A DNA stretch of 64,000 nucleotides from an uncultured Solirubrobacterales bacterium (GTDB taxonomy: Bacteria > Actinomycetota > Thermoleophilia > Solirubrobacterales > 70-9). The translations under genes were made by a program, and so were the position numbers. Each line of letters starts with the position of its first letter. Position 1 is the stretch's first letter. Shown piece after piece: positions 15,898 to 55,644 of the stretch. Where the stretch lies: contig CAVUCS010000002.1 of NCBI GenBank assembly GCA_963740065.1, positions 126,858 through 190,857 on the forward strand, in the 5' to 3' direction. Under the pieces are notes generated by a model. It was given only the letters and a program-made list of their open reading frames with translations, ran no database searches and had not been told where the DNA came from.

Positions 15898-16715
15898 CGA
15901 ACCAGCGCGGCGAGATCGTCGATGACGTGATCGGGGGGCGGGTCGGCGGCCTCCGCGTCCGCCCGCGAGGAGGCGCCGCTGAGAACGAGGATCGTCTCCA
16001 GCCCGGCCCTGCGCCCACCCTCGATGTCGGAGGCGATCCGATCGCCGACCATCGCCACCCTCGCGTTCCGCTGCGACTTACCTCTGTCATGCATAGATAA
16101 GTCGCAGCGGAGCGAGTTGAGGGCGAGGTCGAAGAGGTGGCGTTCGGGCTTGCCCCCGATTGCGGCGCGTTTCCCGGAGGCGGTTTCGACGGCCGCCAGG
16201 GTCGCTCCCGTGCCCGGCAACGCACCCCCCGGCATCGGCAGGGTCGGGTCGCGGCTGGTGGCGAACAGGGCCGCGCCGCCCTGCAGGGCGCGGGTCGCGG
16301 TCGCCAGCTCCGCGTAGTCGAATTCGCGGTGGCCGGAGACGAGCACCGCGTCGGCGCCGTGGGCTTCCTCCCCCTCCAGCAACCTCAGCCCGGTCCCCGC
16401 AATGACCTCCTTGAAACCGGGCGCCCCGATCACGAAGGCCGTGCCGTCGTGCCCGGTTGCCTCCGCGGCGAGTCTGGCGGTCGCGGCCCCCGCCGTCACA
16501 ACCCGATCGTCCGCAATCTCAACTCCCGCATCGCGCAGGCGCGCGGCATAGGCGGAGGGCTTCTTCACCGAGTTGTTGGTGACGAACACAATCTCCGTCC
16601 CCTCCGCAAGCAGCTTCCCCAGGGCCTCGACAGCTCCCGGCACCATCTCGGAGCCTTCCCACACCACACCGTCTAGGTCGACCAGAAACCCGTCGAAGTT
16701 GTCCGCGAGCGCCAT
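15894..16715 (-). CDS. HAD-IIA family hydrolase (NagD-like phosphatase) carrying an in-frame hairpin-repeat insertion
   Basis: Carries the FLVDLDGVVW (DxD), VTNNS, GKP and MVGDRIASDIEGG motifs. The GKP-to-GD spacer contains repeat copy A1 (see findings). Confidence 0.8.
   Translation of the reverse strand: MALADNFDGFLVDLDGVVWEGSEMVPGAVEALGKLLAEGTEIVFVTNNSVKKPSAYAARLRDAGVEIADDRVVTAGAATARLAAEATGHDGTAFVIGAPGFKEVIAGTGLRLLEGEEAHGADAVLVSGHREFDYAELATATRALQGGAALFATSRDPTLPMPGGALPGTGATLAAVETASGKRAAIGGKPERHLFDLALNSLRCDLSMHDRGKSQRNARVAMVGDRIASDIEGGRRAGLETILVLSGASSRADAEAADPPPDHVIDDLAALVR
16064..16114. repeat. family A hairpin repeat, copy A1 (inside the HAD-IIA CDS)
   Basis: CCGCTGCGACTTA (16068-16080) pairs with TAAGTCGCAGCGG (16098-16110), plus outer pairs. 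The apex is CCTCTGTCATGCATAGA. Confidence 0.8.
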
Positions 16716-16731
16716 TCGGCGGCTCAGGCTA

Positions 16732-16847
16732 TTGGGCCTATCCCGGTAGGGGTGGAGCGTCTTGTACTTTTTCGTAGCCGGTCATCGCGGACAGCCGCAA
16801 ACGCGGCTCGAAAAAGTTAAGCGGAACCCCTGCCGGGATAGGCCCAA
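16732..16847 (+). repeat. family B structured intergenic element, copy 1 of 3
   Basis: Direct reading: TTGGGCCT-ATCCCGGTAGGGGTGGAGCGTCTTGTACTTTTTCG...CGAAAAAGTTAAGCGGAACCCCTGCCGGGAT-AGGCCCAA. It lies between the divergent HAD-IIA and ABC ATPase genes. Confidence 0.85.
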
Positions 16848-16873
16848 CGCACCGCTCTCGATACGGTGCGCAA

Positions 16874-17614
16874 ATGAGCGAGACACAGACAGCGACGCAG
16901 GTAGTGACCGCGAGCGAGGTGACCCGCCGCTACGGCGAGGGTGCCGCCGCGGTCGACGCGCTGGCGGGAGTCAGCACCAATTTCCAGCGTGGGCGCTTCA
17001 CCGCGATCATGGGCCCGTCGGGCTCGGGCAAGTCGACTCTGATGCACATCCTCGCTGGGCTCGACAAGCCAACCTCCGGCACCGTCACCCTCGATGGCGT
17101 CGAGGTAACCGCGCTCGACGACGGTGAGTTGACCCAGCTGCGCCGCGACAAGCTCGGCTTCGTCTTCCAGTTCTTCAACTTGCTGCCGGTGTTGACCGCG
17201 GAAGAGAACCTGGTGCTGCCGCTCTCGATCGCCGGTCGCAAGCCCGACGACGCCTGGGTGGATCAGCTGATCGGCACGGTCGGGCTCGAGGACCGGCGCA
17301 CCCACCGTCCCTCTGAGCTGTCCGGAGGCCAGCAGCAGCGGGTCGCGGTCGCCCGCGCCCTCGTCTCCAGACCCGCGGTCGTCTTCGCCGACGAGCCGAC
17401 CGGCAACCTTGACTCGAAGGCGAGCGGCGATGTTCTGAACTTGCTGCGGGGGGCGGTCGATGAGTTCGGCCAGACGGTGGTGATGGTCACCCACGATCCG
17501 GTTGCCGCCGCCCACGCCGACCGGCTGATCACCCTCCGCGACGGGCAGCTCGTCCACGACGAGGCGCCCGGCTCCGCGGACGAGGTGATCGAGCTGATGA
17601 AGCAGATCGATTAA
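16874..17614 (+). CDS. ABC transporter ATP-binding protein (MacB/LolD/FtsE-like)
   Basis: Walker A GPSGSGKST, signature LSGGQQQRVAVARAL and Walker B VVFADEPTGNLD. Confidence 0.9.
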   Translation: MSETQTATQVVTASEVTRRYGEGAAAVDALAGVSTNFQRGRFTAIMGPSGSGKSTLMHILAGLDKPTSGTVTLDGVEVTALDDGELTQLRRDKLGFVFQFFNLLPVLTAEENLVLPLSIAGRKPDDAWVDQLIGTVGLEDRRTHRPSELSGGQQQRVAVARALVSRPAVVFADEPTGNLDSKASGDVLNLLRGAVDEFGQTVVMVTHDPVAAAHADRLITLRDGQLVHDEAPGSADEVIELMKQID

Positions 17615-25966: not shown

Positions 25967-26671
25967 ATGATGCGGGCGAGGGCCGCCGCAAAGGCGGAAT
26001 CTGCAAAAGAAGTTGCAGGCGATGCGATCGCCGCGGTCAAGCCGAAGCTGCGCGGCGTCTCCCATGAGTGGGCCTTCTTCGTCTCACTCTTCCTTGGCGG
26101 CGGGCTGATTGTCGCTGCCGACAGCCCAACGGCGACCGTCGCGGTCGCCATCTACGCCGCCAGCCTCTCCGCCCTGCTCGGCACCAGCGCCCTCTACCAC
26201 CGGGTCAACTGGAGACGCCCCAGCGTGCGCCTTTGGATGCGCCGCCTCGATCACTCGATGATCTTTTTCCTGATCGCCGGGACCTATACGCCTTTCGCTC
26301 TACTCGTCTTGAACGGCCCGCTCGCCGACGCCGTCCTCGCGGTCGTCTGGATCGGCGCGATCGCCGGCGCGATCGTCGAGATGGTTTGGATAGAGCACCC
26401 GAAATGGGTTGCGGCGCTCATATATGTGTCTTTGGGATGGGTGGCGATCATCGCCTTCCCCGGACTGTGGGATGAGATGGGGATGACGGGAACCATGCTG
26501 GTCGCCGCCGGAGGCCTTCTCTACACCGCCGGCGCGATCGTCTACGCGACCCAGCGCCCCAATCCCTTCCCGCGCGTCTTCGGCTATCACGAGGTATTCC
26601 ACGCCCTCGTCATCCTCGCCGCCGCCGCCCAGTTCGCCGCCATCGCCTTCTACGCCCTCCCCGCTGAATAG
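25967..26671 (+). CDS. hemolysin III / PAQR-family membrane protein
   Basis: 7-TM protein with YHR..W....R.LDHS and HxxxH-type (HEVFHALV) motifs. Start at ATG 25967; the upstream part of the track ORF is antisense to nrdJ. Confidence 0.8.
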   Translation: MMRARAAAKAESAKEVAGDAIAAVKPKLRGVSHEWAFFVSLFLGGGLIVAADSPTATVAVAIYAASLSALLGTSALYHRVNWRRPSVRLWMRRLDHSMIFFLIAGTYTPFALLVLNGPLADAVLAVVWIGAIAGAIVEMVWIEHPKWVAALIYVSLGWVAIIAFPGLWDEMGMTGTMLVAAGGLLYTAGAIVYATQRPNPFPRVFGYHEVFHALVILAAAAQFAAIAFYALPAE

Positions 26672-26786
26672 AGCCCCATCCCGGTAGGGGTGGAGCGTCT
26701 TGTGCTTTTTCGGCGCAGCGGCTCGCGGTAAGCCGGAAACGCTCCTCGAAAAAGTTAAGCGGAACCCCTACCGGGATGGGGCTCTA
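26669..26786 (+). repeat. family B structured intergenic element, copy 2 of 3
   Basis: TAGAGCCCC-ATCCCGGTAGGGGTGGAGCGTCTTGTGCTTTTTCG...CGAAAAAGTTAAGCGGAACCCCTACCGGGAT-GGGGCTCTA. It fills the whole gap between two convergent genes. Confidence 0.85.
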
Positions 26787-53678: not shown

Positions 53679-55493
53679 GTGGCGGAACCCGCAATCGGCT
53701 CGGCGCTCGGCGGCTATCGCATCGATGCGCTGATCGCGCGCGGCGGGATGGGGGTCGTCTACCGGGCTACGCACCTGGCGCTGGACCGGCCGGTGGCGCT
53801 GAAGGTGATCGCCGCACATCTCGCCGCCGACGACGGGTTTCGCAGTCGCTTTCTGCGCGAGTCGCGCCTCGCCGCGCGCCTCGACCACCCCAACGTGGTG
53901 CCGGTTTTCGACGCTCGCGAAGAGGACGGCGAGCTGATCGTCGCGATGCGCCTGGTCGAGGGCGGCGACCTGAAGAGAGCGATCGACCGTGAGGGACCGC
54001 TGGCGCCCGATCGCGCGATCGAACTTCTGGGGCAGATCGCCGCCGCGTTGGACGCCGCTCACGCCGCCGGGATCGTCCATCGTGACGTCAAGCCGCACAA
54101 CATCCTCGTCGATGGCGACCGCGCCTACCTCTCCGACTTTGGCCTCGCCAAGGCCGCCGGCGACTCCGGCCTGCTCAGCGAGGCCTCGGTGGTCGGCACC
54201 GCCCAGTACATGTCGCCCGAGCAGTGGCGGGGTGAGCAGATCGGCCCCGCCGCCGACGTCTACTCGCTCGGTTGCGTCCTCTATGAGGCACTGACGGGGG
54301 TCGTTCCCTACGCGCGTCGCGAGGGCGATGCTGAGCCGCGCATGCCGAGAGGGTTGGACCAGGTGATCGAGCGGGCGGTCTCACCCGACGCCGATGCTCG
54401 CTACCAGAGCGCGGGGGAGTTGATCGAAGCCGCCCGCGAGCATCAAGGGGCTACGCCGGCCCCGACGCTCGTCCTTTCCGAGACTCCCGGCAGGAAGACC
54501 GCGGTGCTCTCTGAGGAGAGCGGTCGGCGCGGCTTTCGCGAGTGGCTTGGCGCGAAGGCGAAGAGCGCGGCGATCACCGTCGGCGGCATCCTCGTCGTGA
54601 TCCTCGTGGCCTTCGTTGCCCAGAAGCTCTTCGGAGGCGGCGATGTCTCCGTTTCCGACCCGATTCCGATCGGCAAGGGCCCACTGAGGGTCGCGGTCGG
54701 CGCCCGCTCTGTCTGGGTGACCAGCGCCGGCGACGGAACTCTTTCCCGGATCGATCTTGCGACCGAGGGAGTCGCGGGAAGACCGCTGCACCTCGGACGG
54801 GGAATCGCCGGTGTTGCCGTCGGCGAAGGCTCGGTCTGGGTCACCAGTTCCCGCACCGGCGAAGTCCTGCGGGTCGACGGGGATGCCGGCGCCGTTGAGG
54901 ACCGGATCGATGTAGGCGGGCGCCCGGGCGCGATTGCCTTTGGCGGCGGCAGGGTTTGGGTCGCCGACCAAGCCGGCGGGGGAATAGTCGCGATCAACGC
55001 AGTCGGCGGGCGAGTGTTCAAGCGCGGCATCGCTCCCCACGTCGCGCCCCTGCGGCTCGCCGTCGGCGCGGGCGGCCTCTGGGTCAGCAGCGCCGAGACC
55101 GGCAACGTGCGCCGGGTCGACCTTGGCGACGCCCTCGCCGCCGACCCGATCGCCGTCGGGCGCGGCCCCTCGGGAGTCACCGTCGGCGGCGGCGTGGTCT
55201 GGGTCGCCAACAGCCGCGGCGACAGCGTCACCCGCGTCGATCCGGCGACGAGGACGCTGCTCGGAGAACCGATCGCCGTCGGCGATCGCCCGGGGGGCAT
55301 CGACGCCGGCACCACCGCGGTCTGGGTCGCCAACTCCGCCGACGGCACCGTTACCCGGATCGATATCGAAAACGGAGAAACCGAGGGCGACCCGATCTCC
55401 GTCGGCGCCGATCCTGGCGCAATCGCTGTCGGCTCGGAAGCGGTCTGGGTAGCCAACAATGGCGACGGCACCGTTACCCGGATCGAACCGTAG
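53679..55493 (+). CDS. Ser/Thr protein kinase with a TM segment and an extracellular beta-propeller (NHL/YVTN-like repeats)
   Basis: GGMGVVYRA, ALKV, HRDVKPHNIL, DFGLAKA and SPEQ motifs, then a TM segment and ~6 repeats of G..P.GVAVG.G.VWV. GTG at 53679; the upstream part of the track ORF overlaps the GST-like gene. Confidence 0.85.
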   Translation: MAEPAIGSALGGYRIDALIARGGMGVVYRATHLALDRPVALKVIAAHLAADDGFRSRFLRESRLAARLDHPNVVPVFDAREEDGELIVAMRLVEGGDLKRAIDREGPLAPDRAIELLGQIAAALDAAHAAGIVHRDVKPHNILVDGDRAYLSDFGLAKAAGDSGLLSEASVVGTAQYMSPEQWRGEQIGPAADVYSLGCVLYEALTGVVPYARREGDAEPRMPRGLDQVIERAVSPDADARYQSAGELIEAAREHQGATPAPTLVLSETPGRKTAVLSEESGRRGFREWLGAKAKSAAITVGGILVVILVAFVAQKLFGGGDVSVSDPIPIGKGPLRVAVGARSVWVTSAGDGTLSRIDLATEGVAGRPLHLGRGIAGVAVGEGSVWVTSSRTGEVLRVDGDAGAVEDRIDVGGRPGAIAFGGGRVWVADQAGGGIVAINAVGGRVFKRGIAPHVAPLRLAVGAGGLWVSSAETGNVRRVDLGDALAADPIAVGRGPSGVTVGGGVVWVANSRGDSVTRVDPATRTLLGEPIAVGDRPGGIDAGTTAVWVANSADGTVTRIDIENGETEGDPISVGADPGAIAVGSEAVWVANNGDGTVTRIEP

Positions 55494-55606
55494 GGGACCA
55501 TCCCGGTAGGGGTGGAACGTCTTGTACTTTTTCGCGACAGCCGCTCGCGGTAAGCCGCAAACGTTCCTCGAAAAAGTTAAGTGGAACCCCTACCGGGATG
55601 GTCCCC
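55493..55606 (+). repeat. family B structured intergenic element, copy 3 of 3
   Basis: GGGGACC-ATCCCGGTAGGGGTGGAACGTCTTGTACTTTTTCG...CGAAAAAGTTAAGTGGAACCCCTACCGGGAT-GGTCCCC. It lies between the kinase stop and tkt. Confidence 0.85.
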
Positions 55607-55644
55607 CCGAGCGACGCTTGAATCGCTAGGGTCGGAACTCGGTC

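Follow-up and report, generated by a model that had tools for sequence, protein, structure and literature searches.

A dispersed hairpin repeat of Solirubrobacterales with a recurrently compensated base pair in its core and no conserved crossing helix before tkt

Among the described systems closest to the repeat reported here are the REP and REPIN elements of Pseudomonas and E. coli, which are associated with RAYT transposases (PMC3116915, PMC3337134). Our subject is a hairpin repeat of about 115 nt, family B, found in 64,000 nt of DNA from an uncultured Solirubrobacterales bacterium (GenBank assembly GCA_963740065.1, contig CAVUCS010000002.1, positions 126,858–190,857; hereafter the window), and in particular its third copy, which lies just upstream of the transketolase gene tkt. 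Like REP and REPIN elements, the dispersed copies of family B are extragenic palindromes, about 100 nt in length, that form long hairpins and lie mostly between gene ends. They stay at fixed sites through long periods of vertical inheritance, paired changes maintain their stems, and both arms hold GGTAGGGG, which contains the GTAG tetranucleotide typical of REPs. Unlike in a REPIN, however, the most highly conserved part is a strand-asymmetric internal core (13 nt versus 9 nt) rather than two identical inverted REP units, and unlike REP and REPIN elements family B is symmetric only in its outer helix, has its least conserved positions at its outer ends, and resides in the Actinomycetota.

Other described systems resemble family B in part. 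ERIC/IRU elements are also imperfect palindromes (about 120 nt) that occur in transcribed intergenic regions, in either orientation and in many copies per genome, but they and the related enterobacterial repeats belong to an unrelated host, and their sequences seem unrelated to that of family B, no direct comparison having been made. To our knowledge, neither an order-wide invariant lopsided core nor placement directly on stop codons is a known feature of ERIC. TRIT, a terminator hairpin motif of Mycobacterium, is likewise a repeated conserved hairpin at gene ends in a high-GC actinobacterium, whereas family B is about twice the length, lacks a U-tail and has conserved internal loops of non-Watson-Crick type. 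Finally, copy 3 alone recalls H-type pseudoknots and two-state RNA switches in having a 6-bp alternative helix that energetically rivals the inner helix; unlike in these systems, the second helix is unconserved in the family, displays no covariation and leaves a linker of 1 nt, and unlike riboswitch-like switches the copies lie beside unrelated genes and in both orientations. Family B may work as REP, REPIN, ERIC or TRIT repeats do, and would then be of a repeat kind that is already known.

Taken as a whole, family B is probably a long hairpin repeat with a real nested base pair in its core, no switch, and a REP-like role at gene ends. The density in the window is three copies per 64 kb, as follows.

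55493–55606, plus strand: family B hairpin repeat copy 3, covariance model R1 score 125 bits.
26670–26785, plus strand: family B copy 2, nested pair in the G-C state, scored with the covariance model.
16732–16846, plus strand: family B copy 1, nested pair in the G-C state, without the crossing 6-mer.

A first-pass annotation of this DNA, made from the letters alone, had pointed to three matching substitutions between copies 2 and 3, and to a G/A change in the left strand with two candidate partners, one nested and one crossing. Its letters are exact: copy 3 has GGAACG (55514–55519), CGTTCC (55562–55567) and AAGTGG (55579–55584), copy 2 has GGAGCG, CGCTCC and AAGCGG at the corresponding sites, and copy 1 has GGAGCG, CGCGGC and AAGCGG, without the crossing partner. 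Copy 3 therefore carries A55517, T55564 and T55582 where copy 2 has G, C and C, and copy 1 has G and C at the equivalents of 55517 and 55582. It had also described correctly that a GGAACG/CGTTCC pairing would cross the helix formed by CTTTTTCG (55527–55534) and CGAAAAAG (55569–55576), the arms of which enclose CGTTCC of copy 3, and that the nested pairing sits amid purine-purine oppositions, with GGA 55514–55516 facing GGA 55583–55585. Between copies 2 and 3, three of about 61 core positions differ, two of the three being the nested pair, and six of 35 apical positions differ, one of them the 'crossing' site. What is added here is a specific test of the two proposed pairings.

Copies were collected by pattern and by model. 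A left-arm pattern search of public genome contigs gave 120 loci, and an nhmmer screen gave copies at 41 loci, all in metagenome-assembled genomes of the Solirubrobacterales/Thermoleophilia; these 41 genome-derived copies and the three window copies form a 44-copy alignment. A second pattern, taken from the right side and leaving the variable base as N, gave 120 further loci from soil metagenomes, and the two pattern searches combined yield 150 distinct full-length copies; neither pattern fixes both members of the nested pair. An independent set of 102 counted copies was obtained with covariance model R1, built from the 44 copies and applied to previously unseen metagenome loci. Same-site groups, i.e. 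copies with shared flanking genes, were defined by tblastx comparison of the flanks.

Positions 55517 and 55582 covary strongly throughout. All 44 aligned copies carry either G-C (23) or A-U (21) at the pair; among the 150 distinct copies it is G-C in 75, A-T in 71, A-C in 2 and G-T in 2, and hence Watson-Crick in 146; and the independent set has 55 G-C, 44 A-U, 2 G-U and 1 other. None of 500 shuffles reaches the observed covariation. The first-pass annotation had named a larger alignment in which these positions vary independently as a possible refutation; the mutual information of the two columns is 0.82 bits, with that of either column and any other below 0.1. Both states are present within at least nine same-site groups, including the kinase/tkt site, where copy 3 is A-T and the copy of another organism (L234) is G-C, and the site of copy 1, which is G-C where its same-site counterpart (L133) is A-T; single-step intermediates (G-T or A-C) are seen in two more groups. 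An element tree made without the two pair columns has about 32 state changes, and its well-supported branches provide five independent pairs, of which about four change in the same direction, none in the opposite direction and about one without a change of partner (means over random pairings). Both states are represented in each of six different apical lineages. A55517 and T55582 thus form the purine-pyrimidine (R-Y) pair of a 2-bp helix, and copy 3, where the G-C of copies 1 and 2 has become A-T, shows a genuine double substitution with compensation, a type of event seen repeatedly across the family. These data support a pairing constraint acting on the G/A site at 55517.

The pair belongs to a hairpin with the following parts in copy 3.

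55493–55513, plus strand: 5' arm of the outer helix P1 (21 bp), partner 55586–55606.
55586–55606, plus strand: 3' arm of P1, partner 55493–55513.
55514–55516, plus strand: GGA, 5' side of the purine loop, a nearly invariant 3x3 purine-purine internal loop.
55583–55585, plus strand: GGA, 3' side of the purine loop, opposing GGA 55514–55516.
55517–55518, plus strand: AC, 5' side of the 2-bp helix P1b, with A55517-T55582 as the covarying R-Y pair and C55518-G55581 invariant.
55581–55582, plus strand: GT, 3' side of P1b, the nested partner of the first-pass annotation.
55519–55525, plus strand: GTCTTGT, 5' side (7 nt) of the lopsided internal loop, near-invariant family-wide.
55578–55580, plus strand: TAA, 3' side (3 nt) of the lopsided loop, opposing GTCTTGT.
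55526–55534, plus strand: ACTTTTTCG, 5' arm of the A/T-rich inner helix P2, partner CGAAAAAGT at 55569–55577.
55569–55577, plus strand: CGAAAAAGT, 3' arm of P2, partner ACTTTTTCG.
55535–55568, plus strand: variable apical segment, holding CGTTCC 55562–55567 one base ahead of the P2 3' arm.

Copy 3 is a near-perfect palindrome of 114 nt, and its predicted RNA fold has an energy of -67.5 kcal/mol (z = -8.1 against shuffles). All 21 pairs of P1 vary on both sides, with 96.6% of cells paired in the independent set, and in P2 99% of cells are paired, with covariation at the two innermost pairs. Over the whole hairpin 97.3–97.5% of cells are paired, and none of 500 shuffles matches this in either the 44-copy or the independent set. 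In the GGA/GGA loop the middle G of either strand can be an A, and divergent copies have A in both places; the GTCTTGT side of the lopsided loop is kept even where the outer stems of divergent copies are unrelated. When single-stranded, the family B element folds into a single long irregular hairpin with a conserved, partly non-Watson-Crick core, GGARCGTCTTGTACTTTTT ... AAAAAGTTAAGYGGAAC, that lies within a long covarying outer helix and is present in copy 3. Read from the outside in, its layers are the 21-bp helix, the GGA/GGA loop, the 2-bp helix of R-Y and C-G pairs, the 7/3 loop, the 9-bp A/T-rich helix and the variable tip.

Covariation can also be inherited. If no selection acts on pairing, the G...C and A...T combinations could be old haplotypes spread by copying or by arm-to-arm gene conversion, and the covariation would reflect inheritance rather than compensation. 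Consistent with this, the state is partly clustered on the tree, where the roughly 32 changes among 150 tips leave five independent contrasts on well-supported branches, the pair state is weakly linked with a few other columns, and copy replacement or conversion is suggested by apical types that recur at separate sites while same-site copies differ in type. However, each state is at about 50% and mismatches are found in only 4 of 150 copies despite a separation of 65 nt across the most recombining segment, and both states recur in the six apical lineages and the same-site groups noted above. Single-step intermediates do occur but are few, in keeping with selection against them, and the purine loop with its mismatches and the 7/3 loop, both next to the pair, are stably kept, so that homogenisation of the arms is not general. 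We therefore regard inherited haplotypes as an unlikely source of the covariation, and compensated pairing as its source.

The register of this pairing is a separate matter. In a shifted register, Y55582 would pair with the invariant G55519 (as G-C or G.U) and C55518 with G55583, leaving R55517 unpaired; as a variant, the two registers would alternate. The shifted register gives a longer continuous helix and is the minimum-free-energy and RNAalifold solution, better by about 3 kcal/mol in all three window copies, every one of its pairs is compatible with the alignment, and it accounts for the tolerance of C or T at 55582. It leaves the tie between 55517 and 55582 unexplained, though, its remaining pairs are invariant and so lend it no positive support, and energy models probably give little credit to sheared G.A-type pairs of the kind expected in the GGA/GGA loop. 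Because covariation ties 55582 to 55517, the register is fixed as R55517-Y55582 and C55518-G55581, and we consider the shifted one, alternating or not, quite improbable. One real base pair is thereby located amid an otherwise non-Watson-Crick core, in a register at odds with that of the energy models.

The first-pass annotation had taken the change at 55517 as one substitution compensated at two sites, the second being T55564 in CGTTCC, and hence as a sign of structural selection and a hint of two conformations. The nested half of this claim stands, but the crossing half is coincidental. Copies 2 and 3 do differ at all three sites in matching fashion; the chance of the apical site differing between them is about 0.17, and that of a matching base there is estimated at about 0.06, for one named apical site and before allowing for other noticeable sites. 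Across the 44 copies, however, the GGARCG and CGYTCC columns are paired in 65.4% of cases, the mean of the shuffles being 65.5%, the key crossing pair is unpaired in 28 copies, and the mutual information of the crossing site is below 0.1. A copy's own complementary 6-mer is found anywhere in the apical segment in 8 of 150 copies, and the complement of the other allele in 4 of 150. In the 12 copies with CG[CT]TCC in place the combinations are A+T in 3 (two of them from the same site), A+C in 2, G+T in 1 and G+C in 6, which is not significant, and the G-C copy at the same kinase/tkt site (L234) lacks the complementary 6-mer. The apical segment ends in TCCAC, the complement of GTGGA in the left strand, in about 25 of 150 copies, and complements of at least 7 nt between left strand and apical segment are more frequent than in shuffles (12 copies versus 2.7), though a control segment behaves likewise (6 versus 0.9) and the excess tracks lineages.

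Conformer energies, whose comparison the first-pass annotation had proposed, differ between the copies. With the crossing fold treated as an exclusive alternative in which the crossing helix stacks on the outer helix, crossing and best folds are nearly equal in copy 3 (-66.8 versus -67.5 kcal/mol), but the crossing fold is worse by 6.5 kcal/mol in copy 2 (-70.6 versus -77.1) and by 24 kcal/mol in copy 1 (-54.5 versus -78.5), such that it competes only in copy 3 of the three window copies. H-type pseudoknots have known minimum loop lengths, and since a 6-bp helix would here have to be spanned by T55568 alone, a true pseudoknot appears implausible. The C to T change at 55564 is an unrelated change in the fast-evolving tip, the 6-mer complementarity having been kept by chance, and a conserved second helix, pseudoknot or switch marked by T55564 is not supported. 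Since the crossing helix fails these tests, the 'two-site compensation' resolves into a single compensation and a coincidental change elsewhere, in the part of the element that varies most. A conformational switch before tkt, in which GGAACG pairs with either the AAGTGG side or CGTTCC as two folds or a pseudoknot, is largely refuted at the level of the family and very improbable overall, and with it a false lead is removed.

Conservation is concentrated in the core. In same-site comparisons, identity is 83–98% in the 66-nt core, 70–86% in flanking coding DNA, 31–77% in the apical segment and 12–81% at the outer tips, and divergent copies keep the core with unrelated outer helices; the core therefore behaves as a constrained module and the outer helix as a generic clamp. 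Family-wide, the best-conserved part is asymmetric, with GGARCGTCTTGTA opposite TTAAGYGGA. Throughout this order of uncultured soil bacteria the core thus exceeds its neighbouring genes in conservation, and copies persist at the same genomic sites, where 128 same-site pairs keep their orientation relative to the tblastx-compared flanks and 6 are flipped.

Among the classified copies, 39 lie between convergent genes, 21 are co-directional in the sense orientation, 20 are co-directional in the antisense orientation and 2 lie between divergent genes, with stop codons within a few nucleotides of the element ends family-wide. As sense and antisense copies are about equally frequent, the orientation of the element is independent of gene direction. 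The plus strand is nonetheless distinguished in the outer helix: the pair equivalent to 55510–55589 is T-A in 94 of the 150 copies, T.G in 33, C-G in 21 and C.A in none (a pattern-unbiased set has U.G in 22 and other in 1), so that change always proceeds via the wobble tolerated on the plus strand. This constraint on one strand holds whatever the gene direction. Read-through RNA was considered as the constrained molecule and rejected, given the similar numbers of sense and antisense copies and the equal frequency of T.G at sense loci (5 of 21) and antisense loci (5 of 20).

Core conservation, site persistence and one-strand constraint together make a protein-recognised folded element the leading idea. 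The invariant strand-asymmetric core would be the likely recognition surface for a putative protein that reads the folded plus strand, as either RNA or single-stranded DNA, with the outer helix acting as a generic clamp. Placement directly on stop codons, in either orientation, makes a gene-end hairpin effect likely; the element may serve neighbouring genes in the manner of REP elements, as a barrier at transcript 3' ends or as an insulator, and would not be a regulator specific to tkt. We infer plus-strand reading by a protein, the gene-end hairpin role and the exclusion of a tkt-specific switch with moderate to low confidence.

Several observations weigh against the reading favoured here. 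Both RNAfold and RNAalifold prefer the shifted register, with its G55519-Y55582 and C55518-G55583 pairs, and the function is one that we infer. Apical types differ sharply at the same site yet are common to different sites, which probably reflects copy replacement or gene conversion between copies, and truly independent double substitutions are therefore likely fewer than the raw counts. The hairpin of copy 3 is followed by no U-tract, the 3' sequence being CCGAGCGACG, so it is not a canonical intrinsic terminator; on both strands the T5 run is within the hairpin, ahead of the tip on the 5' side. At antisense loci only the minus strand is expected to be transcribed, and the equal frequency of T.G there fits single-stranded DNA better than read-through RNA. 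Soil metatranscriptome contigs carry full family copies with their flanks, but these contigs are undirected, may include DNA and derive from relatives; among sequencing runs, none represents the window's own locus well, the shares being at most 0.10.

A more specific proposal is that the core, comprising the GGA/GGA loop, the R-Y and C-G pairs, the GUCUUGU/UAA loop and the A/U helix, is a new structured motif that is read on one strand by a dedicated putative protein, for which a domesticated transposase or a Thermoleophilia-specific RNA 3'-end factor would be candidates. This joint proposal is speculative and we hold it only tentatively; in a weaker variant, the internal loop would really alternate between two registers. 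Were the joint proposal true, family B would be an actinobacterial counterpart of the REPIN-RAYT system with a different recognition logic.

Comparison with catalogued motifs and replicons gave no further identity. The whole window has no Rfam 15 match at gathering thresholds, with chance-level matches only around copy 3 (E-values 1.6 and 4.5), and a promoter and terminator scan around copy 3 found nothing canonical. K-turn, sarcin-ricin and 11-nt receptor motifs do not seem to fit the loops of the element. No family B match was found in plasmids, and two pattern matches in viral contigs were both chance occurrences in AT-rich DNA without the element. In the literature we found no description of the family B repeat for Solirubrobacterales or Conexibacter. 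As for miniature inverted-repeat transposable elements, the termini of family B are its least conserved parts, and the ends of the only nearby insertion sequence are unrelated. That insertion sequence lies at about 1576–2577 of locus L017, where an IS1595-family (ISXO2-like DDE) transposase gene is located between two inverted family B copies (L017:1222–2748). Its 24-nt terminal inverted repeats are CTAGTGCGTACCCGCTTAGCTCCA, with solo copies also at 1382–1418 and 1548–1571; it looks like an unrelated insertion into a repeat-rich spacer, and its transposase was rejected as the mobilising enzyme for family B, the terminal repeats being its own and unrelated to the element.

The apical segment and the divergent copies display additional variation. 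Recurring apical types, e.g. ...TGTCTTCAG, ...CTCCACCG and ...GCGGCTCG, are common to unrelated sites, and this distribution suggests exchange between copies rather than simple drift. Flipped same-site copies are seen in L145 versus L109 and L193, and in copy 2 (26670–26785) versus L084:1902–2017, and could have arisen by in-place inversion through arm recombination or by independent arrival at the same gene end. Five divergent copies (L010:5125–5248, L124:5625–5738, L210:21–148, L148:3133–3258 and L204:924–1047) carry coupled changes in the 'unpaired' core, namely T to G in CGTCTTG together with A to G in GTTAAG (three copies) and the change of the middle G.G of the GGA/GGA loop to A.A. These may be shape-preserving replacements of non-canonical pairs, or mere subfamily markers. 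Over all loci, with those of shared ancestry left uncollapsed (about 850–920 genes), fewer flanking genes lie on the plus strand of the element (415 versus 501); plus-strand genes have a coding-strand GC skew of -0.020 versus -0.007 (p = 0.003), and the difference in skew at third codon positions falls short of significance (p = 0.12). These give weak, non-robust hints that element orientation tracks replication direction.

The three window copies differ in their neighbours. Copy 2 fills the stop-to-stop gap between convergent HlyIII-family and siroheme-synthase-like genes. Copy 1 lies between divergent HAD hydrolase and ABC ATPase genes and occupies most of their 158-nt spacer (16715–16874), a context that only 2 of the 82 classified copies share and that is thus rare in the family. 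The L133 copy at this site is placed alike, so that both promoters must be in or right beside the element. Copy 3 lies between the stop codon of a Ser/Thr kinase gene (TAG, 55491–55493), the last base of which is also the first base of the element, and the tkt start codon (ATG, 55645); the kinase has 834 aa with a propeller tail, and the transketolase identity of the downstream gene is confirmed by Pfam. Copy 3 ends 38 nt before the tkt start codon, as first annotated. Within this interval, 20 nt past the element and 12 nt upstream of the tkt ATG, is a TANNNT-type -10-like hexamer, TAGGGT (55627–55632); if this is used, the tkt leader would be only a few bases long, and the promoter region upstream of the hexamer would extend into the hairpin's right arm.

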